Part shown: positions 18,811 to 51,904 of the stretch, in pieces
How the letters are laid out: every line of letters starts with the position of its first letter
Position numbering within the stretch: position 1 is the first letter of the stretch
Assembly (NCBI GenBank): GCA_947628895.1
Contig: CANRBS010000004.1
Span: 1 to 57,362 of the forward strand
Length of the DNA stretch: 57,362 nt
Reading direction: 5' to 3'
From: an uncultured Bacilli bacterium
Lineage (GTDB): Bacteria; Bacillota_I; Bacilli_A; RF39; UBA660
Program-made: the position numbers and the translations under genes
Notes under the pieces: generated by a model
What the model saw: the letters and a program-made list of their open reading frames with translations, nothing else
Told to the model about the DNA's origin: nothing
Database searches by the model: none

Positions 18811-19311
18811 GTGATAAAAATGTATTTTGATGAAAATAACAATTATTATGATGTTCTAGCAAATGAAGAAAAATATGATATTGATCAATATAATACTACA
18901 AAAAATAGTATAAACAATTTTGATATTAATATTGATAGTATTAATTTTGATAGAACAAGTAAACTTTATTCAACTGAAGAAGGATTCAATAAAGGTAATA
19001 TGTTTGAAAATTTATACTCTAAATATAAAAATCATGTATATAAATTAAAAGTAAACAATGCAAAAGATGAATTATTATATAAAATTCAAATGTATACTTT
19101 TGCTATGAAAGATTTAAATTTATATTTAGACTTACATCCAGAAGATAAAGAAATGCTTTCAGAATATCAAAAATTAAGAAAAATGAATGAAGAATTAAAA
19201 AGCAAATATGAAAGGGAATATGGGCCATTATGTGCAAGTGCCGTAACTAGTACAACAAACTTTAATTGGATTAGTAATCCATGGCCATGGGATAAAGGAG
19301 GTAATTTATAA
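18811..19311 (+). CDS. cotJB: Spore coat protein CotJB with N-terminal CotJA-like extension
   Basis: C-half LL..IQ...FA..DLNLYLD.HPED...YE..YGPL...W...PWPWD; N-half YSTEEGFNKGNMFENLY is CotJA-like; probable start ATG at 18820. Confidence 0.85.
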   Translation: MIKMYFDENNNYYDVLANEEKYDIDQYNTTKNSINNFDINIDSINFDRTSKLYSTEEGFNKGNMFENLYSKYKNHVYKLKVNNAKDELLYKIQMYTFAMKDLNLYLDLHPEDKEMLSEYQKLRKMNEELKSKYEREYGPLCASAVTSTTNFNWISNPWPWDKGGNL

Positions 19312-19403
19312 TGTTTAAATATGAAAAAATGTTAGAATATCCTATTAATGTAAAGAAAAAAGATTTGAAAATGGCAAAATTATTAGTAGCTCAATTTGGT
19401 GGT
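19311..19403 (+). pseudogene. cotJC: cotJC 5' fragment (31 codons), interrupted by the prophage
   Basis: TAATG coupling to cotJB; reads MFKYEKMLEYPINVKKKDLKMAKLLVAQFGG, then runs into phage DNA and stops at 19424. Confidence 0.9.
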
Positions 19404-19426
19404 GCAAAGTGTAAAAGGGACTAATT
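19394..19426. other. attL
   Basis: Core ATTTGGTGGT (19394-19403) plus phage arm GGGACTAATT (19417-19426). Confidence 0.85.
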
Positions 19427-19448
19427 TATTATTTTTTTAAAAAATATA

Positions 19449-19477
19449 TTGACATATCGTACGATATGTGATAGAAT
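19449..19477 (+). promoter_or_regulatory. sigmaA promoter with perfect 18-bp palindromic operator
   Basis: TTGACA (19449-54), 17 bp, TAGAAT (19472-77); ACATATCGTACGATATGT at 19452-19469. Confidence 0.75.
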
Positions 19478-19501
19478 AATATATATAGAAAGGAGGTAGT
19501 G

Positions 19502-19600
19502 ATGAAACTTCAATTGACAATCTTTAAAATAAAAATCACTTTAATGGTTACTCATTTAAAGAAGACCAAAAAAGTGAAAAACATTAGGAATTGGGCTTAA
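19502..19600 (+). CDS. 32-aa small basic peptide, absent from the ORF track
   Basis: Strong GAAAGGAGG RBS; MKLQLTIFKIKITLMVTHLKKTKKVKNIRNWA; hairpin at 19586-19612 overlaps its end. Confidence 0.6.
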   Translation: MKLQLTIFKIKITLMVTHLKKTKKVKNIRNWA

Positions 19601-19632
19601 TGCTCAATTTCTAGTAAAGATTATATCAAAAA

Positions 19633-19833
19633 TTGAAGTTTAAGTCAAATATGAAAGAGAAATTTAATCAAATTAAATATCAACAAGAATTTAATAAGAA
19701 ACATTACAAAACATTTAAAGTTGATTTAAAGAAAGAAGAAATGTTAGAACTTGAAAATTTATTAAAAAAATTTAATTTAACAAAAGCTGAATTTTTAAGA
19801 AATTCAATAAAAGAACTAAAAACTAAAAATTAA
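19633..19833 (+). CDS. Small ribbon-helix-helix-like DNA-binding protein
   Basis: YQQEFNKKHYKTFKVDLKKEE...L....LTKAEFLR..I: strand-helix-helix pattern. Confidence 0.55.
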   Translation: MKFKSNMKEKFNQIKYQQEFNKKHYKTFKVDLKKEEMLELENLLKKFNLTKAEFLRNSIKELKTKN

Positions 19834-19939: not shown

Positions 19940-20620
19940 TTATTTCTTTAATGTCTTAGATTTTGATAAAGTATTTTTCCCAAACAAACTATCTTGTTTT
20001 AATAATAATTTACTTTGAAGTTTTTTAACAGCAGATATAGTTTTATCTCCTATAATTCCATCAACAGATAATTTACTATCTACTGCCCAATTTAATAACT
20101 TTTGTAAATTTTTAACTTCATTTCCTTTATCACCTTTTTTAAAATATCCTCTACTTGGTAATTTTGGGAATGTTCCAGAATAAGATTTTTTTGATGTTGA
20201 ATTATTTATTTTTTTAGGTTTTATAGTAATGTGCATAACACTTCCTGATACATTATAATAATAAGATACATTTGATAATGTTTTAACATATGCTACTAAT
20301 TTCTTATAAGATACACCAGATACATAAAAATCACTTGCTGTAGTTCCTAATTCTTTATTATAAATATACCATGTATGATTTGATTTAATAGAACTATTTT
20401 TTTGCTTTGCATTATGTTTTACACATCTAGTTGGAGAAGTTATTGTTAATGATTTTCCAAAATGTGATCTTATTTTTTGCAAAGTTTCAGCTAATTCATA
20501 TGAATATGGAATTTCATGTGCTTTACAATATTTTCCATTACAGTGGCATGCAAATTCATTCCATTTAAAATTCTTAAAATCTTTTACATTATCTTTTGTT
20601 AAAATTTTAAAATCTACCAT
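19940..20620 (-). CDS. Endolysin: peptidase M15-like domain plus peptidoglycan-binding domain
   Basis: FKWNEFACHC, IRSHFG..LTITS..RC..HN, S.H; C-terminal KGDKGNEVKNLQKLL...VDGI.G.KT. Confidence 0.85.
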   Translation of the reverse strand: MVDFKILTKDNVKDFKNFKWNEFACHCNGKYCKAHEIPYSYELAETLQKIRSHFGKSLTITSPTRCVKHNAKQKNSSIKSNHTWYIYNKELGTTASDFYVSGVSYKKLVAYVKTLSNVSYYYNVSGSVMHITIKPKKINNSTSKKSYSGTFPKLPSRGYFKKGDKGNEVKNLQKLLNWAVDSKLSVDGIIGDKTISAVKKLQSKLLLKQDSLFGKNTLSKSKTLKK

Positions 20621-20622
20621 TA

Positions 20623-21003
20623 CTATACCTCTTCAGCTGCTTCATCTTCTTCTGGATCATTTTCTTCATATTCAGTTATATTTGCTTTTACATTTATTAA
20701 ATTAGCTAAATTCTTTAAGCATTTACAACCATATAGAACTATTCCTGCTGTGAATAAAATATTCATACCATCAAATAAATTTACACTTAGTCCATTTATT
20801 TCAGCTACCATTATATCTGGAGATAAATAACTACATAAATACATTAAGCTTATTGCTAGTATTATAAATATAGCTTTAAAAACTCCTTTTTTAAAGGTTT
20901 CTTTATCAAATTCTAATTTTAAACTAGCTAAACTAGTTCCAAGTAAAATATTAGCTACCATTAAAGCAACTAATGAAATTATTAATTTTATCATTTTTTT
21001 CAT
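20623..21003 (-). CDS. Holin-like membrane protein
   Basis: Three hydrophobic segments, acidic tail, immediately upstream of the endolysin. Confidence 0.7.
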   Translation of the reverse strand: MKKMIKLIISLVALMVANILLGTSLASLKLEFDKETFKKGVFKAIFIILAISLMYLCSYLSPDIMVAEINGLSVNLFDGMNILFTAGIVLYGCKCLKNLANLINVKANITEYEENDPEEDEAAEEV

Positions 21004-21015
21004 TCCTTCCTTTTT

Positions 21016-21408
21016 TTATTTTTTATTTCCCATAACTTTGTTCCATCTTGAATGTATATAGCTATTTCCGTGGTACAAATTGGTATATTTTTCGTAAGCA
21101 TCATATGCTCTTTCAATTTCTACTTCACTTAGTTTTTCACCATTTTCTACATCAGATAGAAACCTTACAATATAATTTTTGCATTGGTCTGCACCTAATG
21201 TATTTATTTTATTATTTAGATCTGATTGTAGATTCGTAATTTTTTCATCAAGTTCTTTTTTATTATTTTGAAGTAGGTCAGTTATAGGTTTTGTTATGAC
21301 TTTTGCAAATGCTGATTTAGTATATTTTATTAAAACTAAACATCCACCTATAAAGCCACCCAAAAAAAGAACATTTAAACTTAATGTTCCTAATGTTATA
21401 TCTTGCAT
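21016..21408 (-). CDS. Lysis-region membrane-anchored coiled-coil protein
   Basis: N-terminal TM, then coiled coil and YDAYEKY..LY.GNSY motif common in Firmicute phage lysis cassettes. Confidence 0.55.
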   Translation of the reverse strand: MQDITLGTLSLNVLFLGGFIGGCLVLIKYTKSAFAKVITKPITDLLQNNKKELDEKITNLQSDLNNKINTLGADQCKNYIVRFLSDVENGEKLSEVEIERAYDAYEKYTNLYHGNSYIHSRWNKVMGNKK

Positions 21409-21628: not shown

Positions 21629-22141
21629 CTATATTTCAGTCCAACTATCATTGTATTCTATATTATTTTTTCTATCTAATATAAAATTTCCGAATTGTGT
21701 AGATAGTTCTTTTATATTCCAATAACCAAAACCATTGCCGCCATCAACATAAGCATAGATATAAATTCTTTTATTTGTTTCGTCTTTATAAAAATAGAAT
21801 TTGAAATTACCACCAATATTGACAATTTTTAATCTGTGAGCATTTACAACTTGTGTCCAAAATATAGTAATAATATCACTTGAATAATGTTGATTGTAAT
21901 AAAAATTATGACTTATTAATAATGTTGCAATGCCCCATTTTTCATTATTTGTAAACGCTTCAACATTTATATAACCCAATTGCATGTAATGGGTTGTATA
22001 TCCTGCACTTTGTGTTGATATATTAGTTTTGTATAAATTAGACTTTAAATTATCATTTAATTCATTAAAATTACCATTTAAATTTTTTGGATTTAAAGGT
22101 GTACTCGTATCTGGTAGAGCTTTAAATTCTGTTAATGCCAT
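21629..22141 (-). CDS. Putative tail fibre / receptor-binding protein A
   Basis: Position after tail genes; N-terminus LPDTSTPLNPKNLN shared with the upstream gene; beta-rich remainder. Confidence 0.5.
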   Translation of the reverse strand: MALTEFKALPDTSTPLNPKNLNGNFNELNDNLKSNLYKTNISTQSAGYTTHYMQLGYINVEAFTNNEKWGIATLLISHNFYYNQHYSSDIITIFWTQVVNAHRLKIVNIGGNFKFYFYKDETNKRIYIYAYVDGGNGFGYWNIKELSTQFGNFILDRKNNIEYNDSWTEI

Positions 22142-22195
22142 ATTTACGGCTAATTATTTTTGTTCTATATTATTTCATAATTTAACTTTTATTAA

Positions 22196-23011
22196 CTAAT
22201 AAATTAAAAAACATGGACGAACACCACCAGCTGCTGAAGCAGTAAAGCTATGTGCATAACCTGTGCCTGTAACATTACAAAACTCTTGAGGTTTAGATAC
22301 ATTTCTTAACCAATAGAATTGCCTTGATCCACTATCATCAAAAGCAATTATTTTACTTTTATCTAATCTAAATAAAGATAATTGTGAATTGTCCACTTCT
22401 TGATTAGTAGGTTTAATAGTTCCAGGAGATACATTGTGAAAAATATTAGATCCAAATACCATTAATTCATTCATTAATTCTATTGTTGAATTATACCAAC
22501 CAATATTAGATTCACAATTGTCATTAATAGCATTTGCAAATTGATTTTTATGACTTAAAATATGATCTATTCCAAAATCATTTTGAATAATCGTTTTAAA
22601 TGGATTTAAATTAGTTGTATACATTTCACTGCCTATATAAGCACCTGTTGCAATATCACTATTATTCATTTTTGCCATTCCCATAATTAAATCAGGAATC
22701 ATTAGAATGTGTTGTGTAGTACATTCTTGATCACCTTTATGAAGTCTATAGTTTATATCAGATACAAGATATTTTCTTCCACTTGATTTTCCAATTATGT
22801 AATCTCCAATAAATATATCATCAAATGTTCCATTAGCGATATTTTTTGATACAGTTCCATCATAAAATGATTTTGTGATATCTTTACCTCTGTAAATTGA
22901 GTTATGGAACCCTGCATTATTAGTTCCTAAAAGTTCAAAATTATTATTTAAATTTGTTGGGTTTAAAGGTGTACTTGTATCTGGAAGTCCTTTAAATTTT
23001 GTTATCGCCAT
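22196..23011 (-). CDS. Putative tail fibre / receptor-binding protein B with DUF6273-like lectin-type domain
   Basis: Shared N-terminus; IGDY, GAYIGSEM, YWLR and terminal GGVRP.F motifs. Confidence 0.6.
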   Translation of the reverse strand: MAITKFKGLPDTSTPLNPTNLNNNFELLGTNNAGFHNSIYRGKDITKSFYDGTVSKNIANGTFDDIFIGDYIIGKSSGRKYLVSDINYRLHKGDQECTTQHILMIPDLIMGMAKMNNSDIATGAYIGSEMYTTNLNPFKTIIQNDFGIDHILSHKNQFANAINDNCESNIGWYNSTIELMNELMVFGSNIFHNVSPGTIKPTNQEVDNSQLSLFRLDKSKIIAFDDSGSRQFYWLRNVSKPQEFCNVTGTGYAHSFTASAAGGVRPCFLIY

Positions 23012-23142
23012 ACAAGATCACCTTCATTCTTTAGAGAGCAAAAATAATTTTTATGCCTTGCCCCCTTTCCAAGCTCGTATATATATATATATGAGCAACC
23101 ATTATTTATAAAATTTGTTAAAATATTTTTTGCTTTTTTCAT
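23002..23142 (-). CDS. 46-aa ORF containing a TA tract, overlapping the start of the next gene
   Basis: GAAAGGA RBS; MKKAKNILTNFINNGCSYIYIYELGKGARHKNYFCSLKNEGDLVWR. Confidence 0.35.
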   Translation of the reverse strand: MKKAKNILTNFINNGCSYIYIYELGKGARHKNYFCSLKNEGDLVWR

Positions 23143-23159
23143 AATTTTCCTTTCTTTTT

Positions 23160-25649
23160 TTATTCTAATTCTTTTGTATAAATACCATTTACACCAAAAG
23201 CTGATAATAAATTATTATCAGAATTAACAATTCTTATTGGCATAAAACAATTTGATGTATCTAAAATTAATTTACCAGGGGATGATTTTTTTAAATTGTA
23301 ATAAATTAACTTTCGACAAACTAACATATCATCTATTCCTATTTTTCCATCTTTATTAAAGTCGTATTTTTCATAATCATTGCTTGTAGGAGTAATTTTA
23401 TTTTCACAAATTTGCTGTATTCTTTCTAAATCAGATTGTGTATAGTCATTAGGAGGAACGATTTCACACCATAGAGAATGATCTGTTATATGCCAACCTC
23501 CAATTGTTCCCCCAAGTGCAGTTATTAAACCATCTTTAGTTACTTTAAAATTATCACTCTCAATCGTTGTATTATCACTTGTTAAGTTGATTTCTTTGCC
23601 CTCTAAACTAATTTTGTCAGCATTAATTAAAATCTTTTCTGCACTTTGATTAATTTTAGAAATGATTTCATTATTTCCTACTTTTTTTAAAACTTCTGAA
23701 TTTATGCTTTCTGCTGTTTGAGTAATAGTTGAATTTAAATTTGATACTTCATTATTAAAATTCTTTTCAATTCTGCTAACTTCACTCTTAATAGATTCAT
23801 TAGTTAGTGTTATTGAACTTCTTAATTCAACTTTTGTTGCAAAATTATTTGTATAAGCATTTGAAGCCATTAATTTAACAAATAAATATGCTTCATCATA
23901 CCCTAATAAATAAACATTATAATCACCAGCACTTAAATTAATTGATGGATAATTATAATTATTTATTTTAGGTTCTGATAAAGCATGAGTTGTTCCATCA
24001 GCATTATAGCCAACTTTTTTAATAACTTGACATTGTTTGTTTTCATAATCTAATATAAATTCATCATATATTTCTTTGTTATAAATAAGTAAATCATCTG
24101 GTAATTCATAATCAAATATTTCTTTTGTTGTCGTATTCTCAAACCTTATTTTTCTGTTTTTTAAAAATAAGTCATCACTTGGAAATAAATTGTCATGCGG
24201 ATACAAATAAGAAATATTTTCATTAATAGGTTTAATTCTTATATATAAAGGTTCACTTTCACTAATTTTATTTAATGCTAATGAACCTTTATCAGTTTCA
24301 CCACTAATAATAAATTCTAAAATATTTTGAACTCTAGCAACAAGTTCATCATATCCTTCAATAAGATTTGTATTTATTTTTCCTGCAGAAATAAAATCTG
24401 CATTAAAACTTCCATCTTGTGTTAATGCATATTTAAATGGTCCTTCATATCCGTTTGAACTAAATCCTAATCCTCCTAAATTCCAACGCCAAACATTTTT
24501 TGCATTCTCAATTGGTAATTCATCTAAAATTAACAATTCATTTTTGGTTTGTACAATCTTACCATAACTTACCATTGAATTTATTATTTTAGTTTGAGCA
24601 TCTATTATTTCACTTTGTTTTGATATTTTGTCATTTGCTAAAACAATTTTTTCTTTTATTGAATTAAATTTGCTTTTTACACTTCTAACATAATTTCCAA
24701 AAACTAGTTTAATTATTCTATTAGTATTATGATTATATTCATATTCTTGAACTTCTGTTAACAGTTCAATTAAAGGATGCTTAACATGTATTAAATCTCC
24801 TATTTCTAATCGTTGATTTATATTTGAAACTATTTCATAACTTACATTTGGATATTTATTATTTTCTAAAAAAGCTAATGCTTTATTTCTTAATTCTGTT
24901 ATCAAGTTTTCTTCAGTTTGTTCATCTTCATCAAGCTCAGTTTCAAATGATTCAGTTATAGTATATGGTCTATCATACTGAATATCGCTTTCTAAAAACT
25001 TTTCAGGTAATAATAAACCATCTTTCCCAACAGGATATATTTTAGTACATACATTTGACCAATCTTCAAAGACTTTCAAACTCTCTAAATTTTTTTTATA
25101 AGAAATTACCTCACCATTATCATTGCCAATTTTTGTTAATAAAGATATATTCCAATTATCTGCATCAAAATAACCACCTATTTTTTCTTCAATTGTTTCC
25201 CAAGCTTCAAGTAAATTTTTTCTTATAAAATAATTAGTTGATATTGTTGTAACATCAGAATACACCCTAAATGGTGATTCTTTATCTGTCCTATCATTTA
25301 TGTAAGTTAATGCATTTATTCCATCTAATTTAGTTGGTCTTACATCTAATAAAAAATAATCTTTTGCAGTAAACATAACATGATTTGCTGTAAAGACTAT
25401 TGTTTTTGAAGTATATTCTATGTCATCAATTGTAAATGCTTGAGGATTTAATTTTGACTTTGTTTTTATAACAACAAGTTTATCCTTTAAAATATAGCTT
25501 TTAAATTTTATAGGTACTTCTATTTTAAGAAACCAACCATTTAAAGATTTTAATTTTGTTTCAATACAACTAATTGGATTAATACAAATGTTACCTAATG
25601 TTGAAAAATCTCTATCATCTGAATTAAAGATTTTTATCATAACCAACAA
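23160..25649 (-). CDS. Phage tail protein (Tal/endopeptidase-like) with C-terminal extension
   Basis: Follows Dit; G..ISYKKNL, TKIYPVGKDG, WRWNLGGLGFS..G..GP, ITQTAE.I motifs. Confidence 0.8.
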   Translation of the reverse strand: MLVMIKIFNSDDRDFSTLGNICINPISCIETKLKSLNGWFLKIEVPIKFKSYILKDKLVVIKTKSKLNPQAFTIDDIEYTSKTIVFTANHVMFTAKDYFLLDVRPTKLDGINALTYINDRTDKESPFRVYSDVTTISTNYFIRKNLLEAWETIEEKIGGYFDADNWNISLLTKIGNDNGEVISYKKNLESLKVFEDWSNVCTKIYPVGKDGLLLPEKFLESDIQYDRPYTITESFETELDEDEQTEENLITELRNKALAFLENNKYPNVSYEIVSNINQRLEIGDLIHVKHPLIELLTEVQEYEYNHNTNRIIKLVFGNYVRSVKSKFNSIKEKIVLANDKISKQSEIIDAQTKIINSMVSYGKIVQTKNELLILDELPIENAKNVWRWNLGGLGFSSNGYEGPFKYALTQDGSFNADFISAGKINTNLIEGYDELVARVQNILEFIISGETDKGSLALNKISESEPLYIRIKPINENISYLYPHDNLFPSDDLFLKNRKIRFENTTTKEIFDYELPDDLLIYNKEIYDEFILDYENKQCQVIKKVGYNADGTTHALSEPKINNYNYPSINLSAGDYNVYLLGYDEAYLFVKLMASNAYTNNFATKVELRSSITLTNESIKSEVSRIEKNFNNEVSNLNSTITQTAESINSEVLKKVGNNEIISKINQSAEKILINADKISLEGKEINLTSDNTTIESDNFKVTKDGLITALGGTIGGWHITDHSLWCEIVPPNDYTQSDLERIQQICENKITPTSNDYEKYDFNKDGKIGIDDMLVCRKLIYYNLKKSSPGKLILDTSNCFMPIRIVNSDNNLLSAFGVNGIYTKELE

Positions 25650-26311
25650 TCCTTTCTTTTTATATAAATAATAGAATCACCAGCTTTTATTTCTATATTA
25701 TTTTGTCCTGGATTTAATGTTGGAAAATCAAAACCCAATTTAATATTTCTATTTCTATTTAAATTTTTATATTGAACTGTGCAATTAAAACTGTCAATTT
25801 CAACATAATCTTCTTCATCAGGAAAATCATAAATTAATTCAATATCATTTATTAGTAATTTAACTTGTTTTTCAGTACCTTTAACAATTTTTATTATTGG
25901 ATACGATACATTATTTCCTTCATTATCAATAGTATCAGAAACTTCTACAAAGTCATCATTTGCTTTAAACCAAAAAGGTAACATTTTGAATGAAATATCT
26001 AATGTTCTAATTGTAACGGCTCTTATAGGATCTGCAGAATCTAAAAATCTAGCAATCGTATATTTACCATCATATTCAAATTCACCAGTACCATTTAGCC
26101 AAGATAAAATATCATTTATTTTGCTAACATCTTTTATATAAAGTTTCATTGTTTTATCTTTTGTAGCATATCCTAAATCGTTAAAAATTGAAATATTACT
26201 ACCATCAATTGTAATTTCTTCATATCTATGAGCTGCACGAGAAATAAATTGATTTTCTTCTTCACAAACAACATTCATTTGTTCACTTGAAATATTTTTA
26301 AATTTAAACAT
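25637..26311 (-). CDS. Distal tail protein (Dit-like)
   Basis: Directly after tape measure; FKFKNISS, IDGS, FP.L.PG.N.I. Confidence 0.75.
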   Translation of the reverse strand: MFKFKNISSEQMNVVCEEENQFISRAAHRYEEITIDGSNISIFNDLGYATKDKTMKLYIKDVSKINDILSWLNGTGEFEYDGKYTIARFLDSADPIRAVTIRTLDISFKMLPFWFKANDDFVEVSDTIDNEGNNVSYPIIKIVKGTEKQVKLLINDIELIYDFPDEEDYVEIDSFNCTVQYKNLNRNRNIKLGFDFPTLNPGQNNIEIKAGDSIIYIKRKDCWL

Positions 26312-30053: not shown

Positions 30054-30068
30054 TTTTTTCTTCCTTTC

Positions 30069-41708: not shown

Positions 41709-41719
41709 TTTCTCCTCCT

Positions 41720-42022: not shown

Positions 42023-42039
42023 ATTATTTACCTCCTATA

Positions 42040-42213
42040 TTAAATAAACTTTTTTCTTGAAGTAGTATCTTTTTTATCTATCAAATATTGATTGTTATTT
42101 GTAATATGTTTTATTACATATTTTCCATCGTGAATATTTAATATAACTCCTACTTTCTTTTTGTTAGATGATTCAGTTTTAAATTCAATTATATCTCCTG
42201 GTTTAAACTTCAT
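42040..42213 (-). CDS. 57-aa hypothetical protein, absent from the ORF track
   Basis: ATGA coupling to the upstream gene; MKFKPGDIIEF...VGVIL (KOW/SH3-like start). Confidence 0.5.
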   Translation of the reverse strand: MKFKPGDIIEFKTESSNKKKVGVILNIHDGKYVIKHITNNNQYLIDKKDTTSRKKFI

Positions 42214-42955: not shown

Positions 42956-42965
42956 TTTTTATCAC

Positions 42966-43234
42966 CTATTTAATTTTTCCTAATGGTTCATAATTTCCAT
43001 TTTCATTTTTAATTGTTAATGTTGGATATAATTTGCCGCATAATTCACAAAATTTTTTACCATTATCATCTGTAATAAAAATTGTTTTGTTATTGCAATT
43101 AGGACACATAATAGCATTTTTAATATGTTTATGTTGTTTTATATATTCTCTTTTTTTTTGCGATTATAACTAGTTATAGTTGATTTCCCGTTAAAAATTC
43201 CATAATCACTATAATCAAATTCATATCCTGTCAT
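42966..43234 (-). pseudogene. Zinc-ribbon gene split by a -1 frameshift at an A9 run
   Basis: ATGA-coupled start at 43234 stops after 31 codons; the -1 frame after plus-strand T9 (43151-43159) continues with CPNC...CELC to TAG at 42966. Confidence 0.45.
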
Positions 43235-43542
43235 TCTTTATCACCTCTTACAAAATTTAGGACTTCCTGATAAGTGTCATAAGTTGCTTTTTCTAATGAA
43301 TACTCATCATATATATAATTGCCATAATCTTCTTTACATTCTTTTATCTTATCTTTCAAAAAAGTAATAAGTTGTTTTTTTTCCATTTCTTTATCAAGTT
43401 TACCTTGTTCTAACCCTTTTATATATTCTTCTTTTAACATCTGATTTATAATAGGTACAATTTTATCTAAATATATGCAATCTTGACATATACCTTGTAT
43501 TTTATCTTTAATAATGCTTTCATTTAATTCTTCTTCTGTCAT
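43231..43542 (-). CDS. Phage hypothetical protein
   Basis: AGGAGG RBS; open 103-aa frame. Confidence 0.6.
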   Translation of the reverse strand: MTEEELNESIIKDKIQGICQDCIYLDKIVPIINQMLKEEYIKGLEQGKLDKEMEKKQLITFLKDKIKECKEDYGNYIYDEYSLEKATYDTYQEVLNFVRGDKE

Positions 43543-43555
43543 TTTATTTTTCCTC

Positions 43556-43726
43556 CTACCACATAATTACAATAGCTATAAAACTACCTATCATAAATAA
43601 AACTGAAATTGTTTTTACTATTACCCAAAAATTATAAGTACCATCTAACACATCTAATAAATCAAGTTTTTCCTTTTTAAATGTAATTAATGCACTAATT
43701 CCAAATATAATTATTGCTAGTTTCAT
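43556..43726 (-). CDS. 56-aa membrane protein, absent from the ORF track
   Basis: GAAAGGA RBS; two hydrophobic segments. Confidence 0.45.
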   Translation of the reverse strand: MKLAIIIFGISALITFKKEKLDLLDVLDGTYNFWVIVKTISVLFMIGSFIAIVIMW

Positions 43727-43740
43727 TTTATTTTTCCTTT

Positions 43741-43917
43741 CTAGTATTCTAAACTTACAACTAATTTATCATCTTCTACATTTATATTCCATATTGGGAA
43801 TTTTTTATAATTTTCTAGTCCTTTATCATTTTTTGAAAAAATTCCAATTCTATCTCCATAAAATAATTCAAATTCTAATTCACTATCAATTATTTCTAAT
43901 AAATCTTCTAACTTCAT
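43741..43917 (-). CDS. 58-aa hypothetical protein, absent from the ORF track
   Basis: GGAGG RBS; MKLEDLLEII... Confidence 0.5.
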   Translation of the reverse strand: MKLEDLLEIIDSELEFELFYGDRIGIFSKNDKGLENYKKFPIWNINVEDDKLVVSLEY

Positions 43918-43918
43918 T

Positions 43919-44278
43919 TTATTTTTCCTCCAATTTTTCTATTATTTTTCGTTGATTTTTAATAAGTTGATTAATATGATTACTTATATATTTTTCAGTG
44001 CCACTCATATTTAATATACCTAAATTAATATCTATTTCTTCTATATCTTCCCACTCATCATTTTCTTTTGGTAGAATTTCAACTGTATCATTTAAAATGT
44101 GTCTATTCATTACTAAATAAAATAAATTATAACCATTTTTGTCAAAGTATCCGTTTATATTTTTGTCATATTCATAGGTTGTATCTTGAAGTTTAATTTT
44201 TTTAGGTGCTTTGTCATCTTTAATAAGCCCCATTAATTCATATATTGTTATTTCTTTATTTTTCATTTTTTTTCTCAC
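43919..44278 (-). CDS. Phage hypothetical protein
   Basis: ITIYELMGLIKD.KAPKKI...; open frame. Confidence 0.6.
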   Translation of the reverse strand: MRKKMKNKEITIYELMGLIKDDKAPKKIKLQDTTYEYDKNINGYFDKNGYNLFYLVMNRHILNDTVEILPKENDEWEDIEEIDINLGILNMSGTEKYISNHINQLIKNQRKIIEKLEEK

Positions 44279-44280
44279 AA

Positions 44281-44604
44281 TTAATCATTATCTATAATTC
44301 TTCTAGGTATTTTACCTTCTGGAAAAATAAATATATAATCTTCATCTATTATTTTTTTTATTTCATCTTTAGTTAATAATTCTTTTGCAATCTCTAACTT
44401 GTAAATATTCTTTTTTGCAGCATAATATCTATTCATAACTTCAGAAGCTTCGTTCTTTGAATAATAAGATGCGAGAGCTAGATTTGAATCTAATGGTCTT
44501 ATTTCAATTTCTTGATTTTGTGGCGATCCTTTAATGATCATTATTAATTCAGTATCTTTTATAGTTCTTGTTTTATTTTGGGATACTAACAGCATCTTTA
44601 TCAT
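44281..44604 (-). CDS. Phage hypothetical protein
   Basis: LLVSQ.K...LA.Y...EA.EV motif similar to 41720-42022. Confidence 0.55.
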   Translation of the reverse strand: MIKMLLVSQNKTRTIKDTELIMIIKGSPQNQEIEIRPLDSNLALASYYSKNEASEVMNRYYAAKKNIYKLEIAKELLTKDEIKKIIDEDYIFIFPEGKIPRRIIDND

Positions 44605-45034
44605 ATCCTTTCTTTTTTAGATCTATCAATTTTTGTTTTAAAAACACTCTCGTATCTTGTGTCATTTTAACTTCTCTAAATAACACCCTTAATGCAAAAT
44701 AATAATCTTGTTCTTTTTTCTTCAAGAGTTTTTTTAAATCTTCATTTTCAAATTTTAATTTATTATTTTCTTTCGTTAAGCCACCACATTTTGCTGCATT
44801 TGTTTGTCTTCTTTTTTCAGTATCAGTTAATTGTTCTGTCAATTTATCAATTTCTTTACTTTTATCATTACTTTCTTTTCTTAAAATATGAATTGTTCTA
44901 CTGTCTATTTTTGCATTATTTTGTAATCTTTGAATTAATTCTCTATTCTCCTTATTTGTAACAACTAATGTATTAATTAATTTTTTATTTTCTTCAATTT
45001 CTTTATCTTTTTTTGTTTTTATTCCTAATATCAC
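44573..45034 (-). CDS. Coiled-coil phage protein
   Basis: Heptad-rich open frame. Confidence 0.55.
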   Translation of the reverse strand: MILGIKTKKDKEIEENKKLINTLVVTNKENRELIQRLQNNAKIDSRTIHILRKESNDKSKEIDKLTEQLTDTEKRRQTNAAKCGGLTKENNKLKFENEDLKKLLKKKEQDYYFALRVLFREVKMTQDTRVFLKQKLIDLKKKGYDKDAVSIPK

Positions 45035-45038
45035 TTTT

Positions 45039-45962
45039 TTATTCTCCTTCTTTTCTAAAATTATTTATAAAATCTTTAAATTCTTTATCATCAATTTTTT
45101 CTCCTGATTTTTTAATTTCTTCATTAACCCAATCAGGAACAGGTACAACCCTTTTACCTTTATTATTCTTTTTTTCAAACTTATCCTCAAAATTAATTAT
45201 TTCTTTTAACGTTTCCAAATTATCTTGTTTCCAATTTTTTAAAATACCTTTTGTGTAATTCAAGCTTTGTTTTCCAGCTTCTAAAGTTTTTTTAAAAGCA
45301 TATAATGTAATATCTGGATGATATTTTTCTATCAATAGTTCTATTTGCTCATATTCATATGAACTAATAGTTCTATTAAAATTATTTTCTATAAAAGAAA
45401 CTATATTATTAATATCAATATTATTTAAATTATTATCTAAATTATTAATATTACTATTTAATTTATTATTAATATTTTTATTATTATTTTTATTATTATT
45501 TATATTATTATTAACATTAACATTAACAACTTGTTGTGCATACTCGTTTGCATACCCATTTGCATTATCGTTTGCATACTTGTTTGCATTATCGTTTGCA
45601 TACTCGTTTGCATTATCGTTTGCATACTCGTTTGCATACTCGTTTGCATTATCATTTGCATACCCGTTTGCATTATCATTTGCATACCCGTTTGCATTAT
45701 CATTTGTATGCCATCTAGTATTTGCAGCTTTTGATCTTTTAATATATTTTTCTATTGGTCTTTTTAAATTTACAAAGACAGCCATTTGTCTAGGGTTTAA
45801 ATTATCTGGTGGTTCTTCGTTTAATCCAAATTTTACGAGTGCAAGTAATAATTCTCCTTGTTCTTTATCACTTAAAACGGATATTAAATCAAAGTATTCT
45901 CTATAAATTGTAAATGATTTTATCATTTTCCCTCCTAAAATTTTTAACACAAAATAATCCAT
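45039..45962 (-). CDS. Replication initiator (DUF6291-like N-terminus, DnaD-like C-terminus)
   Basis: KSF..Y..Y...I..LSD..QGELL; FIENNFNR.IS..E...I, Y..GILKNW, VPDW; probable start ATG at 45926. Confidence 0.82.
   Translation of the reverse strand: MDYFVLKILGGKMIKSFTIYREYFDLISVLSDKEQGELLLALVKFGLNEEPPDNLNPRQMAVFVNLKRPIEKYIKRSKAANTRWHTNDNANGYANDNANGYANDNANEYANEYANDNANEYANDNANKYANDNANGYANEYAQQVVNVNVNNNINNNKNNNKNINNKLNSNINNLDNNLNNIDINNIVSFIENNFNRTISSYEYEQIELLIEKYHPDITLYAFKKTLEAGKQSLNYTKGILKNWKQDNLETLKEIINFEDKFEKKNNKGKRVVPVPDWVNEEIKKSGEKIDDKEFKDFINNFRKEGE
45537..45704. repeat. Fourteen tandem 12-bp iteron-like repeats (probable phage origin)
   Basis: Units TGCATACTCGTT / TGCATTATCRTT / TGCATACCCRTT counted by hand; adjacent to an extremely AT-rich tract at ~45400-45530. 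Confidence 0.85.
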
Positions 45963-46128
45963 AATATAATTATTAATTTATATTTAGACCAAACCCCTGA
46001 ATAATAGTTGTATTTGCTCCCCAAACATTTCCAAAAAGAGCAAAATACAATAATAAAATAAAGAAAGAAGTTAAATTAGTTTTATAAGTAGGAGTGTAAA
46101 TGGTTTTGAAATGTTTGTTTTAGAAAAA

Positions 46129-46446
46129 TTAAATTATCTTATTTTTATTAACATCTTGTAAATCGTTTTCAAGTTTTAAAATTTTCAATCTATAATCTTT
46201 AATTTCATTTTGATATTCGTGCTTTTGTTTACGATATTTTTGTAATAAAAATTCTGCATCATCTATTTTCTGATTAATAAAATCAGAATTTACATATATT
46301 TCTAGATCTTTTATTTTTTGATTTGCAAGATCTAGTTCATTTTTGTATTTTTCATTTAGCATTTCTAGATTGTTTAATAATTTTATTAATTTAGACTGTT
46401 TATACACATATCTTGCTATTTTTTTTATTTTATCTTTTACTTTCAT
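46129..46446 (-). CDS. Coiled-coil hypothetical protein
   Basis: GGAGG RBS; heptad pattern. Confidence 0.55.
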   Translation of the reverse strand: MKVKDKIKKIARYVYKQSKLIKLLNNLEMLNEKYKNELDLANQKIKDLEIYVNSDFINQKIDDAEFLLQKYRKQKHEYQNEIKDYRLKILKLENDLQDVNKNKII

Positions 46447-46543
46447 TTTTCCTCCAATTGTTTAAAAAAAGTTGTATTTTTTTCTCCACATTTGATATAA
46501 TATATTGCAGAGAAAAAACAATGCTATGTTTATTTCTCTCTTT

Positions 46544-46759
46544 TTATTTCCATAATTTTAGAACTTCGTGTCTAAAATTTTTAATATTTTGATACCCTAT
46601 AATAGTTACTATAAATAATGCAGTTGAAATTAATGTAATAACAAGCATTCTCCAATCTTTTAAATCACAACCTGATTCATAAAGACTCCAAGCAATTATT
46701 GTTACAATTCCAACTAATATTGCTATTATTGTTTCCCATTTAATTTTAAATAGTTTCAT
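46544..46759 (-). CDS. Two-TM membrane protein
   Basis: GAGGTG RBS; two hydrophobic helices. Confidence 0.55.
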   Translation of the reverse strand: MKLFKIKWETIIAILVGIVTIIAWSLYESGCDLKDWRMLVITLISTALFIVTIIGYQNIKNFRHEVLKLWK

Positions 46760-47082
46760 TATTATTCACCTCACTTCCTAATACTTTCTTTAAATGATCT
46801 TCTAACTCTTTTATCATTTCTTTTGCTTTATCTTCATCTGGTTTATTTATTACAATAACTTTATAATCATTCATATAAATAACCTCCTAATAAATGATAT
46901 TTAATTGTCGTGGTAATTTGTTTTTTTATTTTATTTAATAATTTCTTTCTAACACTTTTTGAATTGAATATTAGCTGTATTCAATTCTTTTTTATTTATT
47001 TCTTTAATAATTAAATTAATAAATTCTTCTTTTTCTTTTTCTGTTAAGTTTTTAAATAATTCTAATAAATTCATAATTTCTC

Positions 47083-47310
47083 CTAACAATCATTTTTACT
47101 GTAACTTTTTTCAGTTACATCATTTTCAAAAAAAATATTTTCATATTTATCATTTAATATTTTCAATATTTTTTTTACTTCAACTAAATTAAAATCAAGT
47201 TTTCCATTTTCTTTTAAATTATAATTATTTTTAGAAATTCCTAATAATTCTGCCATTTTTTCTTGTGTAATTTTTAGTTCATTCCTTTTTCCAATTAATT
47301 TTGGATACAT
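47083..47310 (-). CDS. Cro-like XRE-family HTH regulator
   Basis: ITQEKMAELLGIS...Y..KENG; divergent from the repressor. Confidence 0.85.
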   Translation of the reverse strand: MYPKLIGKRNELKITQEKMAELLGISKNNYNLKENGKLDFNLVEVKKILKILNDKYENIFFENDVTEKSYSKNDC

Positions 47311-47454: not shown

Positions 47455-48174
47455 ATGAATTTTGATAATGAAGAAAATTTAGATTATCAATTAAATAAGG
47501 TAGCTTCAATTATCATTAAAGAAAAAAGAAATAAAAAAGGTATAAGTTTAGATGAACTTGCAAATAGACTAAATAATGTCGTAACTAAACAATCTCTTTA
47601 CAGATATGAAAACAATGAAGCAAGAATGAAAAATAAAATTTTTAAAAAAATATGTTTAGCATTAAACGAAAATCCATCAGATGTATGGGAAGAAATAAAT
47701 AATCGTTTTATAAGCCATTTAGATTTTGATAATGCTAACTTTTTAGATATAGAAAGTGATACAATACAAATACCTGTATTAGGAACAATTAAAGCAGGTA
47801 TACCTATTGAAGCACAAGCAGATATATTAGAATATATAGATATACCTAAAAATTGGTTAAAAGGTGGAAAAAAATTCTATGGACTAAAAATATCTGGTGA
47901 TAGTATGTTTCCAAAATATAGTGAAAACGATATTGTTATATTTGAACAAACTAATGATTACACATTAGCAAATAATAAAGATTGTGCTGTTATGGTTAAT
48001 GGATTTGATGCTACATTTAAAAATGTTACTTTAAACGAAAATGGCATAACTCTTGTACCATTAAATTTAAATAATCAAGATAATTATTTACCAACTTTTT
48101 ATAATAAGGAAGAAATTGAAAAATTACCTGTTAAAATTATTGGAATAGCAAGAGAAAAAAGAACAAGATTATAG
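47455..48174 (+). CDS. CI-like repressor (XRE HTH + S24 peptidase)
   Basis: HTH, IKAG.P Ala-Gly cleavage site, GDSM.P catalytic Ser, ATFK Lys. Confidence 0.92.
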   Translation: MNFDNEENLDYQLNKVASIIIKEKRNKKGISLDELANRLNNVVTKQSLYRYENNEARMKNKIFKKICLALNENPSDVWEEINNRFISHLDFDNANFLDIESDTIQIPVLGTIKAGIPIEAQADILEYIDIPKNWLKGGKKFYGLKISGDSMFPKYSENDIVIFEQTNDYTLANNKDCAVMVNGFDATFKNVTLNENGITLVPLNLNNQDNYLPTFYNKEEIEKLPVKIIGIAREKRTRL

Positions 48175-48198: not shown

Positions 48199-48912
48199 AT
48201 GGTTGACTATGAGATTAAAAATAAAAAAATTACTTTGTTATTATGTATATTTGGTGGTTATTTAGGATTACATCACTTTTATAATAAACAATATAAAAAA
48301 GGTATTTTATATATATTTACAGTTGGTTTATTTTATATAGGTTGGATCGTTGATATCATATTAATATGGCAAAAAAAAGAAAATGAAAATGAAATAACAC
48401 AAAATATTGAAACAATTAATAAAAATGATGAAGAAATAAAAAATAAAGCAATCATATTTGACTGTGTAGGCGAGTCATTTGATAATGATGATGGTGTTAA
48501 TAGACAAACAAGAATAAAGCAAATTCTTAAAAATTATAAAGAAAGTGATGATTACATAAAAGAAAAAGCATTTAAAGGATATACTAACGAAGAAATTTTA
48601 AAATATGATGCTAATATAAGTGAATTTGAAGATATAGCTTTTAAAGGAAACTTTAAAGAATTTAACTACAAAGGAGAAAGAGCATTTGCAATATATATGA
48701 ATGATTTTAAAAATAATGAATATCAAATTGGTAATATTGCTAGAAAAGATATTCCTAAATTTTTAGAAATAATTGAAAATCATAAAATAATTAATTTAAA
48801 ATTATATGTTATAGGTGGAACTTATAAATATTCTAATACCAATGGAGGTAAACAATCTGTTGCTACAAAAACATTTGATTATGGAATAAAAATGAAAATC
48901 ATTTATGAATAA
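48199..48912 (+). CDS. TM2-domain membrane protein with soluble C-terminal domain
   Basis: LLCIFGGYLGLHHFY....KGILY.FT.GLF.IGW.VD. Confidence 0.75.
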   Translation: MVDYEIKNKKITLLLCIFGGYLGLHHFYNKQYKKGILYIFTVGLFYIGWIVDIILIWQKKENENEITQNIETINKNDEEIKNKAIIFDCVGESFDNDDGVNRQTRIKQILKNYKESDDYIKEKAFKGYTNEEILKYDANISEFEDIAFKGNFKEFNYKGERAFAIYMNDFKNNEYQIGNIARKDIPKFLEIIENHKIINLKLYVIGGTYKYSNTNGGKQSVATKTFDYGIKMKIIYE

Positions 48913-48932
48913 TAAATTAGAGGAGATTTAAA

Positions 48933-49862
48933 ATGAAAAACGAAATAATATTGTTTGAAAATCAAAATGTTAAATTAGAAGTAAATATGCAAGATGAAAC
49001 TGTATGGCTTACACAGGAGCAAATGGGAACTTTATTTGATAAGTCAAGATCAACAATAAATGAACATATTAAGAACATTTATAGTGAAAAGGAATTAGAA
49101 GAAAAAGAAACCTTAAGAAAATTCGGAAATTCCGAATTTAGTTCAAAGCCAACAAATTATTACAATTTGGATGTAATTATTAGTGTTGGATATAGAGTCA
49201 GATCCAAAAATGGTATTATATTCCGTAAATGGGCAAATAATGTATTAAAAGATTATATGATTAAAGGTTATGCTATTAATCAAAAAAGATTAACATCTTT
49301 GGAAAAAACTGTTAAATTGTTAGATATTGCCAATAGAACTAATAAATTAACAGGTGGCGAAACAAAAGAAATACTAAAAGTAATTAATGAATATTCAAAA
49401 GCATTAAATCTATTAGATGATTATGATCATCAAAAAATAGAAAAAGTAAAAGGACAAAAAAGTGAAAAAATAATTACATATGAAGAATGTATGGAAATTA
49501 TTAACAAATTAAAATTTAACAATAATAGCAGTTTATTTGCATTAGAAAAAAATGGTAGTTTTAAATCAATTATTAATGATATATACATTTCTTTTGATAA
49601 TAAAGACATGTATCCAACTATTGAAGAAAAAGCAGCTAATCTATTATATTTAATTGTTAAAAATCATTCATTTATTGATGGTAATAAAAGAATAGCAGCA
49701 ACAATATTTATTTATTTTTTACAAGTAAATGGTATACTTTACAAAGATGATAGAAAAGTAATAGATAATAATACTCTTACAGCTATTACTATTCTAATAG
49801 CAGAATCTAATCCAAAGGAAAAAGAAATTATGATAGATTTAATTATGAATTTTCTTAAATAA
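48933..49862 (+). CDS. RhuM-like N-terminal domain fused to Fic/Doc domain
   Basis: ETVWLTQ.QM..LF, YNLDVIISVGYRV.S....FR.WA; KAA.LLY..VKNHSFIDGNKRIA. Confidence 0.88.
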   Translation: MKNEIILFENQNVKLEVNMQDETVWLTQEQMGTLFDKSRSTINEHIKNIYSEKELEEKETLRKFGNSEFSSKPTNYYNLDVIISVGYRVRSKNGIIFRKWANNVLKDYMIKGYAINQKRLTSLEKTVKLLDIANRTNKLTGGETKEILKVINEYSKALNLLDDYDHQKIEKVKGQKSEKIITYEECMEIINKLKFNNNSSLFALEKNGSFKSIINDIYISFDNKDMYPTIEEKAANLLYLIVKNHSFIDGNKRIAATIFIYFLQVNGILYKDDRKVIDNNTLTAITILIAESNPKEKEIMIDLIMNFLK

Positions 49863-49863
49863 A

Positions 49864-49890
49864 AAGATCTCGTACTACGAATACGAGATC
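49864..49890 (+). terminator. Hairpin between fic and integrase
   Basis: GATCTCGTA, 7-nt loop, TACGAGATC. Confidence 0.55.
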
Positions 49891-49978
49891 AAGTAGAAAA
49901 CAAATTATGTCCACCACGACAATTAATGAGTTTTCTACTGCAATTTTATCATAAAATTAAAAGAAAGGAAAGTTTTTT

Positions 49979-51418
49979 ATGAGAAATGGAGCAGTATATA
50001 TAAGAGTTTCAACAGGTGAACAAACAGAGTATTCACCTGATGCACAATTAAAAGATATAAAAAAATATGCAAAGGCAAATAACATATTAATAACAAAAGA
50101 ATTTACATTTATTGAACCTGGTGTAACAGGAAGAAGTGTTGAAAAAAGAGAGCAATTTAAAAGAATGATAGCAATTGCTAAAAAGAAACCTAAACCTTTT
50201 GATGTTGTTTTAATTCATGCTTATGATAGATTTGCTCGTAATGTAAAAGAGAGTAGAATTTATAAAGAATTATTAAGAAATGATTTAGGTATTGAATTAA
50301 TATCTATTACAGAAGATTTTGGCAATGATAAAAATAGTTTTTTGATGGAAGGCATAAAAGATGTTCTTAATGAATATTATTCTTTAAATTTAAGAGATGA
50401 AGTTTTAAAAGGAATGAAAGAAAAAGCTTCAAGAGGTGAATTACAAAGTAGTGCATCATTTGGTTATAAAGTTGTTAATAATATGTTAGAAATTGTTGAA
50501 GAAGAGGCTAATATAGTTAGATTAATATATGATAAATATGCTAATTCAAATTTAAATTATACTGATATAACTAAATTAATTAATAGACTAGGTGTAAAAA
50601 CTAAAAGAGGAAATAAATGGGAAACTAGAACTATAAAATATGTTTTACATAATCCAGTTTATATTGGCAAATTAAGATGGTCTACAAATGGTAGAGTTGA
50701 TTATCATATGTTCAATTCAAATGATAAAACTACAATTACAGATAGCAAACACAAACCTATAATAGATCTAAATACTTGGAATAAAGTCCAAGAAAAAGCA
50801 CAAATTAATAATAAATTTTCTAAACAACATCAGGCAGCATCCAATGAATGTTGGCACTGGATAAAAGGATTAATCAAATGTCCATTTTGTAATCATACAT
50901 ATACTAAATTAAATAAAAATAAGATTCGTTGCAATGGTTATAATAAAGGAATCTGTGATAATAATATTTCATTTAAAGTCAGTGATGTTGAAGAACTCAT
51001 TTTAGAGCAAATTAAAGAAGACTTTAAATCAAAGGTACAAATTAATATAAATGTTAAAAAAACTTCTGAAAACATAGAAAAATCACTTCTAATAAAGGAA
51101 TTAGAAAGTTTACAAATAAAAAAAGAAAGAATAAAAGAAAGTTATATATCAGGAATTGATACACTAGAAGAATATAAATCAAATAAAGAATTAATTTTAA
51201 ATGAAGAGAACAAATTAAGACAAGAATTGGAAAAATATAAAGATGATAATTTAGATAACATACAAAAACAAATTAAAATAAATGCTAAAAGTATTTATGA
51301 AATGTTAAAAGATGAAAAAATAGGTATGGATCTAAAAAGAAATGCTATAAATAAATTAATTGATAAAGTGGAAATAAACCCTAAAACAAAGGAAATTTCT
51401 ATATATTATAATAATTAG
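49979..51418 (+). CDS. Large serine recombinase (prophage integrase)
   Basis: YIRVST catalytic Ser, DRFARN, FGY, NPVYIG recombinase domain, CPFC zinc ribbon, coiled coil; stop codon lies in the att arm. Confidence 0.95.
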   Translation: MRNGAVYIRVSTGEQTEYSPDAQLKDIKKYAKANNILITKEFTFIEPGVTGRSVEKREQFKRMIAIAKKKPKPFDVVLIHAYDRFARNVKESRIYKELLRNDLGIELISITEDFGNDKNSFLMEGIKDVLNEYYSLNLRDEVLKGMKEKASRGELQSSASFGYKVVNNMLEIVEEEANIVRLIYDKYANSNLNYTDITKLINRLGVKTKRGNKWETRTIKYVLHNPVYIGKLRWSTNGRVDYHMFNSNDKTTITDSKHKPIIDLNTWNKVQEKAQINNKFSKQHQAASNECWHWIKGLIKCPFCNHTYTKLNKNKIRCNGYNKGICDNNISFKVSDVEELILEQIKEDFKSKVQININVKKTSENIEKSLLIKELESLQIKKERIKESYISGIDTLEEYKSNKELILNEENKLRQELEKYKDDNLDNIQKQIKINAKSIYEMLKDEKIGMDLKRNAINKLIDKVEINPKTKEISIYYNN

Positions 51419-51439
51419 TCCCATTTGATATTTGGTGGT
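51413..51439. other. attR
   Basis: Phage arm AATTAGTCCC (51413-51422) plus core ATTTGGTGGT (51430-51439). Confidence 0.85.
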
Positions 51440-51904
51440 CCTGATGGTGAACTTTCAGCGGCTTTAAGATATTTAACTCAAAGATTTAGTATGCCAGATG
51501 ATAAAGGTAAAGCTTTACTTTCAGATATTGGTACAGAAGAATTAGGTCATGTAGAAATGATTTGTACTATGATTAATCAATTAATAAAGAATGCTACTGT
51601 TGAAGAATTAAAGAAAGCTGGTTTAGATGCTTGGTATACACAGCATAATAAAGGTTTATACCCAATGGATGCTAATGGTGTTCCATATACTGCTGCATAT
51701 ATTCAATCTACTGGTAATCCAATAGTGGATTTACAAGAAGACTTAGCTGCTGAAGAAAAAGCAAGAGCAACTTATGAAAACTTAATGGATTTAACAGATG
51801 ATGAAACGATTCTAGCTCCACTTAGTTTTTTAAGACAAAGAGAAGTTGTTCACTTTGCTAGATTTAAAGAATTATTAGAATATTATAAAAGAAAAGGATA
51901 TTAA
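51431..51904 (+). pseudogene. cotJC: cotJC 3' fragment (Mn-catalase domain)
   Basis: FGGPDGELSAALRYLTQR, DIGTEELGHVE, DL.AEE.AR, RQRE..H; in frame with the 5' fragment across the core. Confidence 0.92.

Follow-up and report, generated by a model that had tools for sequence, protein, structure and literature searches.

Elements that intervene in sporulation genes form an established class (PMC4191935, PMC5499854, PMC5025042, PMC5595907, PMC10747680). In the case of SPbeta, sprA lies at the 3' piece of the interrupted gene and sprB, of 58 aa, follows closely behind the 5' piece (PMC4191935); the prophage is excised after mitomycin C treatment as well as in the mother cell (PMC4191935, PMC5595907). 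The coat gene cotJC has already been connected with this class: in bioRxiv 10.1101/2021.11.22.469490, Abe et al. (2013) are cited as listing it as an in-silico target, and a skin-like element has been described in cotJC of Laceyella sacchari (bioRxiv 10.1101/2022.02.25.481979). Here we describe an apparently complete siphovirus prophage inserted into cotJC of an uncultured Bacilli bacterium (GTDB lineage RF39; UBA660). The window analysed is the whole of contig CANRBS010000004.1 (57,362 nucleotides, assembly GCA_947628895.1), and all positions refer to it. A first-pass annotation, made from the letters alone, had proposed that a 32-kb prophage splits cotJC, that its excision restores the gene in frame and that it may act as a developmental switch, and had left aside whether cotJC was a reported target. 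It had been so reported, in silico; our literature search found no experimental study of a cotJC element.

The upstream gene cotJB (18811..19311, + strand; Pfam CotJB PF12652, E=1.2e-26) was listed from a GTG at 18811, the likely start being the ATG at 18820, which has the ribosome-binding site (RBS) AAAGGGTG ahead of it. Its stop is overlapped by the cotJC start ATG at 19311, from which the 5' piece of cotJC runs for 31 codons (19311..19403, +; MFKYEK...VAQFGG), matching positions 1-31 of the Mn_catalase profile. Past 19403 this frame continues into phage DNA as AKCKRD and reaches a stop at 19424. The 3' piece (51440..51904, +; PDGELSAALRY...KRKGY), comprising 154 codons and the stop, matches profile positions 33-194 (Pfam Mn_catalase, E=9e-49), so that the two pieces abut in the profile; it sits directly behind the stop of a gene encoding a 479-aa large serine recombinase (LSR). 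The pieces are separated by an insert of 32,036 bp. An in-silico join of 19311-19403 with 51440-51904 produced a 185-aa open reading frame (ORF) with zero internal stops, which reads QFGGPDGEL across the junction and whose product is 96% identical, over 185/185 residues, to the uninterrupted CotJC of a sister species. Every coordinate of the first-pass annotation was reproduced in this way, and its claim of an exact in-frame restoration held.

That annotation had also suggested a survey of related genomes. One uninterrupted cotJC (183-185 aligned residues) was found in 21 of the 24 other species of the genus, the other three giving no match, and a script-made model of the joined flanks aligned over about 3.1 kb, without gaps across the junction, to at least 10 genomes of the genus. 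The 10-mer ATTTGGTGGT that is shared by both junctions occurs 13 times in the 1.46-Mb genome when taken alone; the 96%-identical intact ortholog, the intact sister copies and the colinear flanks indicate that the insertion in cotJC is not a chance one. The source assembly (1.46 Mb in 76 contigs, 92% complete, 4.6% contamination) was also searched for a second intact cotJC, named beforehand as a finding that would make the split copy dispensable, and no second true cotJC was found in it. A Mn-catalase match at 1626-2132 (+) was rejected as a spare copy, being only 29% identical, rubrerythrin/ferritin-like and unlinked to cotJB. This 168-aa ferritin/rubrerythrin-like protein, which matches the Mn-catalase N-terminus weakly, belongs to a separate family conserved in relatives.

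The attachment sites have the geometry of serine integrase sites, with a short shared core and imperfect inverted arms. The core ATTTGGTGGT is duplicated at 19394..19403 (attL, + strand) and 51430..51439 (attR, +), as first noted, and identity between attL and attR is confined to these 10 bp, with none beyond on either side. On the phage side, attL continues directly 3' of the core as GCAAAGTGTAAAAGGGACTAATT (19404-19426), and attR is preceded directly 5' of the core by AATTAGTCCCATTTGAT (51413-51429). These stretches contain the inverted arms AATTAGTCCC (51413-51422) and GGGACTAATT (19417-19426), which in the rebuilt attP stand as AATTAGTCCC-N30-GGGACTAATT. A symmetry scan bore out the earlier proposal that the arms are centred on the GG at core positions 8-9: the best centre of attP falls between G8 and G9, with 17/26 positions complementary. 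This geometry fits the GG as the predicted crossover dinucleotide. The junctions were modelled as attB = GCTCAATTTGGTGGTCCTGATGG and attP = TTTGATATTTGGTGGTGCAAAGTG.

The LSR gene (49979..51418, +) ends 11 nt before the attR core. Its product carries the catalytic domain of serine recombinases (Resolvase, PF00239, E=1.7e-27, residues 5-154), the recombinase domain (PF07508, E=5.5e-21) and a zinc ribbon (Zn_ribbon_recom, PF13408, E=2.6e-6) that passes the Pfam cut-off; Ser11, within the motif YIRVS, and the zinc-ribbon Cys residues are invariant among six LSR homologs. Matches in the PDB were serine recombinase catalytic domains, that of the TP901-1 integrase among them. The domains and the 11-nt spacing confirm that an LSR adjoins the cotJC 3' piece. 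Among GenBank phages, the best integrase match was 38% identical (bajarodcaudo virus 3), and Bacillus and Streptococcus integrases were at about 25%; no cotJC-type attP follows the int gene of bajarodcaudo virus 3. We consider it practically certain that the prophage was integrated by its own LSR and that the event is reversible in frame. Recombination of attP with attB at the central GG would split cotJC between codons 31 and 32, that is, between QFGG and PDGEL, and the reverse reaction between attL and attR would remove exactly 32,036 bp and restore the 185-aa Mn-catalase-type coat protein.

The same codon is used by related recombinases elsewhere in the family. Among 200 family genomes, LSRs 38-46% identical to the present one were found in seven other genera, and in five of these a cotJC piece adjoins the LSR. 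Insertion after the GG of codons 30-31 (site 1) was found in six other genera, in the genomes labelled G126, G235, G324, G161, G073 and G077, with LSRs 40-50% identical. The elements measure 36.8 kb in G126 (an assembly of four contigs), 36.4 kb in G235 (one contig) and about 28 kb in G324, and a mini element in G161 measures only 3,715 bp (within C6:22800-31100). In G073 the two cotJC pieces are on two contigs, and in G077 the attL junction is on contig C51 and an intact cotJC on contig C25. As 3 of 60 bases around the insertion site are different in the intact G077 copy, this metagenome-assembled genome holds a mixed population, probably of lysogenic and non-lysogenic strains that were binned together. 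The phage-side arms GTCCC...GGGAC are conserved among the site-1 elements, whose phage bodies are otherwise unrelated, and the integrase is the only gene common to all six; what these elements share is, as judged from their gene content, the recombination module. The G161 mini element holds the LSR, a PemK/MazF-like toxin gene and two further ORFs to which no function was assigned. The toxin gene is common to G161 and G235 only, and in the 36-kb prophage of the latter it is near attL; it could be an addiction module that retains the element.

The LSR lineage extends into viromes. A query of IMG/VR with an alignment gave at least 499 LSR relatives; a search of genome contigs with the single integrase had given no related loci, and the genome searches and the alignment query performed better. 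In the best 80 of these relatives, for which context was counted, 20 were flanked by cotJC pieces and 26 ended within 60 nt of int. Of the remaining 34, 14 had a T(A/T)(T/C)GGNGG core within palindromic arms right after int, in either orientation, compared with 5.7% of background windows; several more cores were recognised by eye, and a minority had clearly different sites. The attP of this lineage copies the cotJC sequence CAA-T(T/A)(T/C)-GGN-GGN between its palindromic arms. The core-and-arm geometry described above is repeated in G161, G126, G235 and the free attP sites of IMG/VR, and these free sites show that phages of this LSR lineage exist off the chromosome.

A second insertion point was found in cotJC, at codons ~64-67 within the TEEL(G/A)H motif (site 2), beside an LSR of a different type that is about 30% identical to the site-1 LSR. 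Both cotJC pieces were found in 14 genomes and a single piece in four more, and junction DNA or protein was inspected in six genomes. The site-2 elements span from 3.7 kb, in the mini element of G113, to about 37 kb. In the G113 mini element, as in that of G161, the LSR and both gene halves are intact and the att sites are clean. Across the family, cotJC was found in 337/401 genomes (84%) and 195/214 genera, and about 25 of the 337 species (7%) have it split at one site or the other; this percentage is a lower bound because only the 26 genomes with weak or multiple cotJC matches were searched again, the others being left at the first pass. Wherever both halves were present in the split copies examined, both were still open. 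In eight IMG/VR contigs the 3' cotJC piece beside a site-1 integrase stops at about residue 63-72, and these are therefore double splits, with a second cut at site 2. In three of the site-2 genomes with a single piece (G044, G370 and G294), that piece is the 3' one, and the site-2 LSR next to it matches in two or three separate segments. These could be either assembly gaps or decaying elements, and since the 5' piece may lie in such gaps we did not accept the three genomes as decayed remnants that would show cotJC to be dispensable.

The host genome encodes SpoIVA (E=9e-103, in an open 498-aa frame) and is thus very probably that of an endospore former. A putative promoter of mother-cell type precedes the cotJ operon at 18772..18799 (+), where a pattern scan found AC-N17-CATACAATA; it fits the sigmaK pattern, and its -10 also fits that of sigmaE. 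The -35 AC and the -10 CATACAATA are kept in 11 of 13 upstream regions of the genus while their surroundings drift, and the pattern has only 7 matches in the window. The sigmaE-like promoter first assigned to the operon was retained as a mother-cell-type (sigmaK/sigmaE-like) match. The cotJ operon of B. subtilis is expressed in the mother cell; by likeness to it, the same expression is presumed for cotJC here.

Considering all of the above, the reading that we favour, with a probability of roughly 55%, is that of a temperate siphovirus that entered cotJC by means of its own LSR and, like SPbeta, excises both on induction and in the sporulating mother cell. The phage would work as SPbeta does. 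Its integrase gene follows cI and the cargo genes on the lysogeny side, so that the integrase is probably made in the lysogen, while excision would be gated by a small phage protein, a predicted recombination directionality factor (RDF). Excision would take place upon prophage induction, when the S24-type repressor is cleaved, and most likely also in the terminal mother cell during sporulation, where the cotJ operon would be transcribed and where loss of the prophage would be without cost to the germ line. For the coupling to sporulation taken by itself, we see about an even chance. Several observations speak for it: the host has SpoIVA, the genus-wide cotJ promoter and no second cotJC; cotJC is kept in 337 of the 401 genomes of a family with genomes of ~1 Mb, yet is split in about 7% of species, with both halves open; the mini elements, which lack phage genes, still keep the LSR and exact att sites; the layout is that of SPbeta, in which the integrase adjoins the 3' piece and small genes come first behind the 5' one; and skin, SPbeta, vfbin, vrin and gin set a precedent for excision in sporulating cells.

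Several results weigh against this coupling. The search for an RDF with PHROGs and Pfam among ten small ORFs returned only Cro-like, helix-turn-helix (HTH) or ribbon-helix-helix (RHH) matches, and no small gene was found to be conserved across the six site-1 elements or beside the attP of the IMG/VR relatives. The place taken by sprB in SPbeta is occupied here by an attL-proximal cassette (19449..19833, +) read in the same direction as cotJ. It has a sigmaA-like, near-consensus promoter (TTGACA-17-TAGAAT) over the perfect palindrome ATATCGTACGATAT, a 33-aa ORF for a hydrophobic and basic peptide with a strong RBS (19499-19600, +) and an ORF for an RHH-like protein of 60-66 aa (19633/19651-19833, +). 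The latter was a candidate RDF, and G324 has a homolog (47-51%) of ORF 19651-19833 at the matching position. Its family also occurs in contigs of phi29-like podoviruses, which do not integrate, and elsewhere in phages, and the IMG/VR attP sites have no comparable gene beside them, so we downgraded it to a weak candidate. Neither AC-N16-17-CATANNNTA nor a sigmaE-type match was found ahead of int or of any of the small ORFs; of the sigma matches inside the element, three are antisense and fall in late genes, and a loose sigmaE match, at 42895(-), is inside an ORF. Read-through from the cotJ promoter into the cassette would be one possible wiring of the coupling, as the search for a + strand terminator from 19424 to 19833 found none. 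Moreover, the repressor is of an ordinary SOS-cleavable, LexA-like (S24) type, and the phage was absent from all 24 sister species searched, the insertion being specific to the present species representative. The prophage is therefore, by this distribution, a recent arrival and not a domesticated switch. Finally, no contig with attB or attP was found in the genome's own assembly, and the exact attP junction of this phage had zero matches in viral contigs, an absence that counts as weak evidence. The sole match of attP to a metagenome contig was rejected as a chance one, the contig being an unrelated, high-GC one of 162 kb without similarity to the window. The public collections that we searched gave no free or circular form of this phage, again weak evidence as an absence, and only its relatives show a free attP.

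 On the opposite strand, at 19648-19620 (-), an 11/12 promoter match (TTGACT-17-TATAAT) points back at the ORF of the 33-aa peptide, and the layout as a whole resembles that of a small toxin/antitoxin or moron cassette. In the corresponding region of G324 (contig C1), about 70-100 nt after attL, the ATG of the RHH-like homolog is out of frame with the conserved reading frame, across a run of eight A residues, which may be a homopolymer assembly error or a slippery tract.

The strongest alternative, which we hold to be possible if clearly less probable than the favoured reading, is that cotJC is a passive safe harbour: its best-conserved stretch serves solely as an invariant attB shared by many hosts, loss of CotJC is tolerated, and excision accompanies lytic induction only, with no developmental timing. 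The ordinary repressor, the recent acquisition and the failure to find either a sporulation promoter or an RDF in the element all agree with it. So do laboratory tests, in which CotJC-type genes were dispensable in B. subtilis, where their loss gave no clear phenotype, and in C. difficile, where it only reduced catalase activity (PMC12122855, PMC11222575), and this dispensability makes a simple tolerance of the insertion possible. In addition, the hot sites coincide with the two best-conserved motifs in cotJC, QFGGP and TEELGH, as would be expected of a conserved landing site. Nevertheless, 84% of the genomes surveyed still have cotJC although genomes of this family are strongly reduced, every split copy examined keeps both halves open, and the 3.7-kb elements, no longer phages, retain the LSR and exact att sites. 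Furthermore, those LSR elements of mother-cell genes that have been tested (skin, SPbeta, vfbin, vrin and gin) do excise during sporulation (PMC4191935, PMC5595907).

A broader reading joins all the inserts of the family, and we regard it as doubtful. According to it, cotJC is a shared, multi-site landing pad in small-genome gut spore-formers, from which all inserts need to be excised and where integration itself wires excision. At least two orthogonal LSR lineages may have become fixed on it, one on the QFGGP codons 30-31 and the other on TEELGH at ~64-67. Some cotJC genes are split twice, and a functional coat catalase may require every insert to be excised in the mother cell. In the present phage and in that of G324, integration may couple excision to sporulation by placing the attP-proximal small genes (here the RHH-like ORF at 19651-19833) directly behind the sigmaE/K-driven transcript of cotJB and the cotJC 5' piece, without an intervening terminator.

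It is unlikely that the prophage is locked or defective, that is, that it has lost excision, for instance through loss of the RDF or through a fault not visible by inspection, and has permanently inactivated cotJC in this strain. The lack of an identified RDF, the failure to find its free attP in any collection searched and the three genomes with only a 3' piece beside a site-2 LSR are consistent with such a loss. Against it, none of the modules (structural, lysis, replication, lysogeny) is broken or incomplete, the full-length LSR has kept its invariant catalytic Ser, the two att sites are perfect, and the gene halves are undamaged and join to a protein 96% identical to an intact ortholog. 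An assembly or binning artefact, in which phage and cotJC halves come from different molecules, would be conceivable in a 76-contig draft with 4.6% contamination and is nonetheless highly improbable, as this single contig contains both junctions along with host flanks of 19 kb and 6 kb, which match the gene order of sister genomes, the insert and its surroundings have an equal GC content of 23.9%, and relatives with closed or near-closed genomes (G235, G126) show this architecture too.

The insert is a full siphovirus prophage of 32,036 bp without visibly broken genes, as judged from Pfam, PHROG and ORF translations. It apparently has all of its modules, namely those for packaging, head, tail, lysis, replication and lysogeny, and the first description of the phage as apparently intact was upheld by open genes for TerS, TerL, portal, protease, head, tail, lysis and repressor functions. 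No DNA relative of it was found among GenBank phages. After the attL cassette, on the - strand, comes the lysis module (19940..21408), with a PHROG-assigned endolysin (19940-20620) and two membrane proteins that look holin-like by eye. The tail module (21629..31369, -) includes, by PHROG, a tail protein (23160-25649), Dit (25637-26311), the tape measure protein (26311-28938) and the major tail protein (29424-30053), all on the - strand, as well as fibre-like, neck, terminator and adaptor proteins. It is followed by the head and packaging genes (31855..36907, -; PHROG) for the major head protein, maturation protease, portal and the large and small terminase subunits. Between the packaging and early genes are two adjacent tyrosine recombinase genes (39169..41539, -; PHROG integrase), one of 281 aa and XerC/D-like and the other of 463 aa and phage-integrase-like (Pfam Phage_integrase, E=4.6e-18 and 8.6e-34). 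This pair could represent a nested element, or a dimer-resolution or inversion system. The early region (41514..47310, -; PHROG, Pfam) consists of small ORFs and includes a DnaD-like replication protein (45039-45962, -) and a Cro-like HTH protein (47083-47310, -); within the DnaD-like protein there is a long low-complexity insert, made up of NDNANGYA/NEYA repeats, and behind it an N-rich tract. On the + strand, the CI/LexA-like repressor (47455..48174; Pfam HTH_3 and Peptidase_S24) is followed by the lysogeny-side cargo (48199..49862; Pfam), which encodes a TM2-domain protein and a RhuM/Fic-domain protein. These might have a role in superinfection exclusion or abortive infection.

The locus adds a clean and complete example to the prophages that split mother-cell sporulation genes, in a seemingly uncultured host lineage with a ~1.5-Mb genome of 24% GC. 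The wider survey is of more use than the single case: one coat gene is entered at two fixed codons by two types of integrase in ~7% of the species of a large family, by elements that range from 3.7-kb minis to 37-kb phages, and in viromes hundreds of related integrases come with attP sites in which the cotJC core is copied. The interest of the system lies mainly in how common and how site-specific this splitting of cotJC is. It provides a natural set of related, distinct serine integrases with paired attB and attP sites, and a concrete system in which to ask if "active lysogeny" at sporulation genes is under selection or just tolerated. It also carries a warning for annotation, as pipelines will call cotJC a pseudogene, or miss it, in genomes of this kind.

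How far the present element resembles those already described can be stated as follows. The structural reading is fully supported, and the developmental switch is inferred. A close likeness is that to SPbeta in spsM of B. subtilis, with its integrase SprA and its RDF SprB, which is likewise an active-looking prophage in a mother-cell gene for the spore envelope (PMC4191935, PMC5499854); in both, the LSR adjoins the 3' piece, small genes lie inside the 5' junction and excision restores the frame exactly. The two differ in their target, spsM in one and cotJC in the other, and the present LSR is far from Bacillus integrases (~25%); moreover, we found neither an SprB-like RDF nor a sigmaE/K promoter in the present element, the excision of which during sporulation we infer. 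The skin elements in sigK (SpoIVCA/Skr in B. subtilis; CD1231 and CD1234 in C. difficile; PMC5025042) are also serine-recombinase elements in a mother-cell sporulation gene, and the 3.7-kb minis of G161 and G113, with a recombinase and few other genes, look like remnants of the skin type, whereas the present element is a full phage. Since cotJC encodes a structural coat enzyme and not a regulator, no developmental checkpoint depends on it, unlike the case of skin and sigK. The yin element in yabG of Clostridium botulinum is a prophage-like serine-recombinase element in a sporulation gene of a clostridial host; it was shown to circularise in culture, and its RDF was found only by structure modelling (PMC10747680). 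In Clostridioides difficile, phi027 is found beside the CotJC-like gene cotG and not inside it, and thus shares only the association with the CotJC family (PMC11222575, PMC12122855). The earlier cotJC elements, that listed by Abe et al. (2013), as cited in the first preprint, and that of Laceyella sacchari, have the same target gene and belong to the same class of element, and were single cases in Bacilli; compared with them, the present survey places cotJC splitting in a small-genome lineage of 24% GC, at two fixed sites, by two types of LSR and in ~7% of species.

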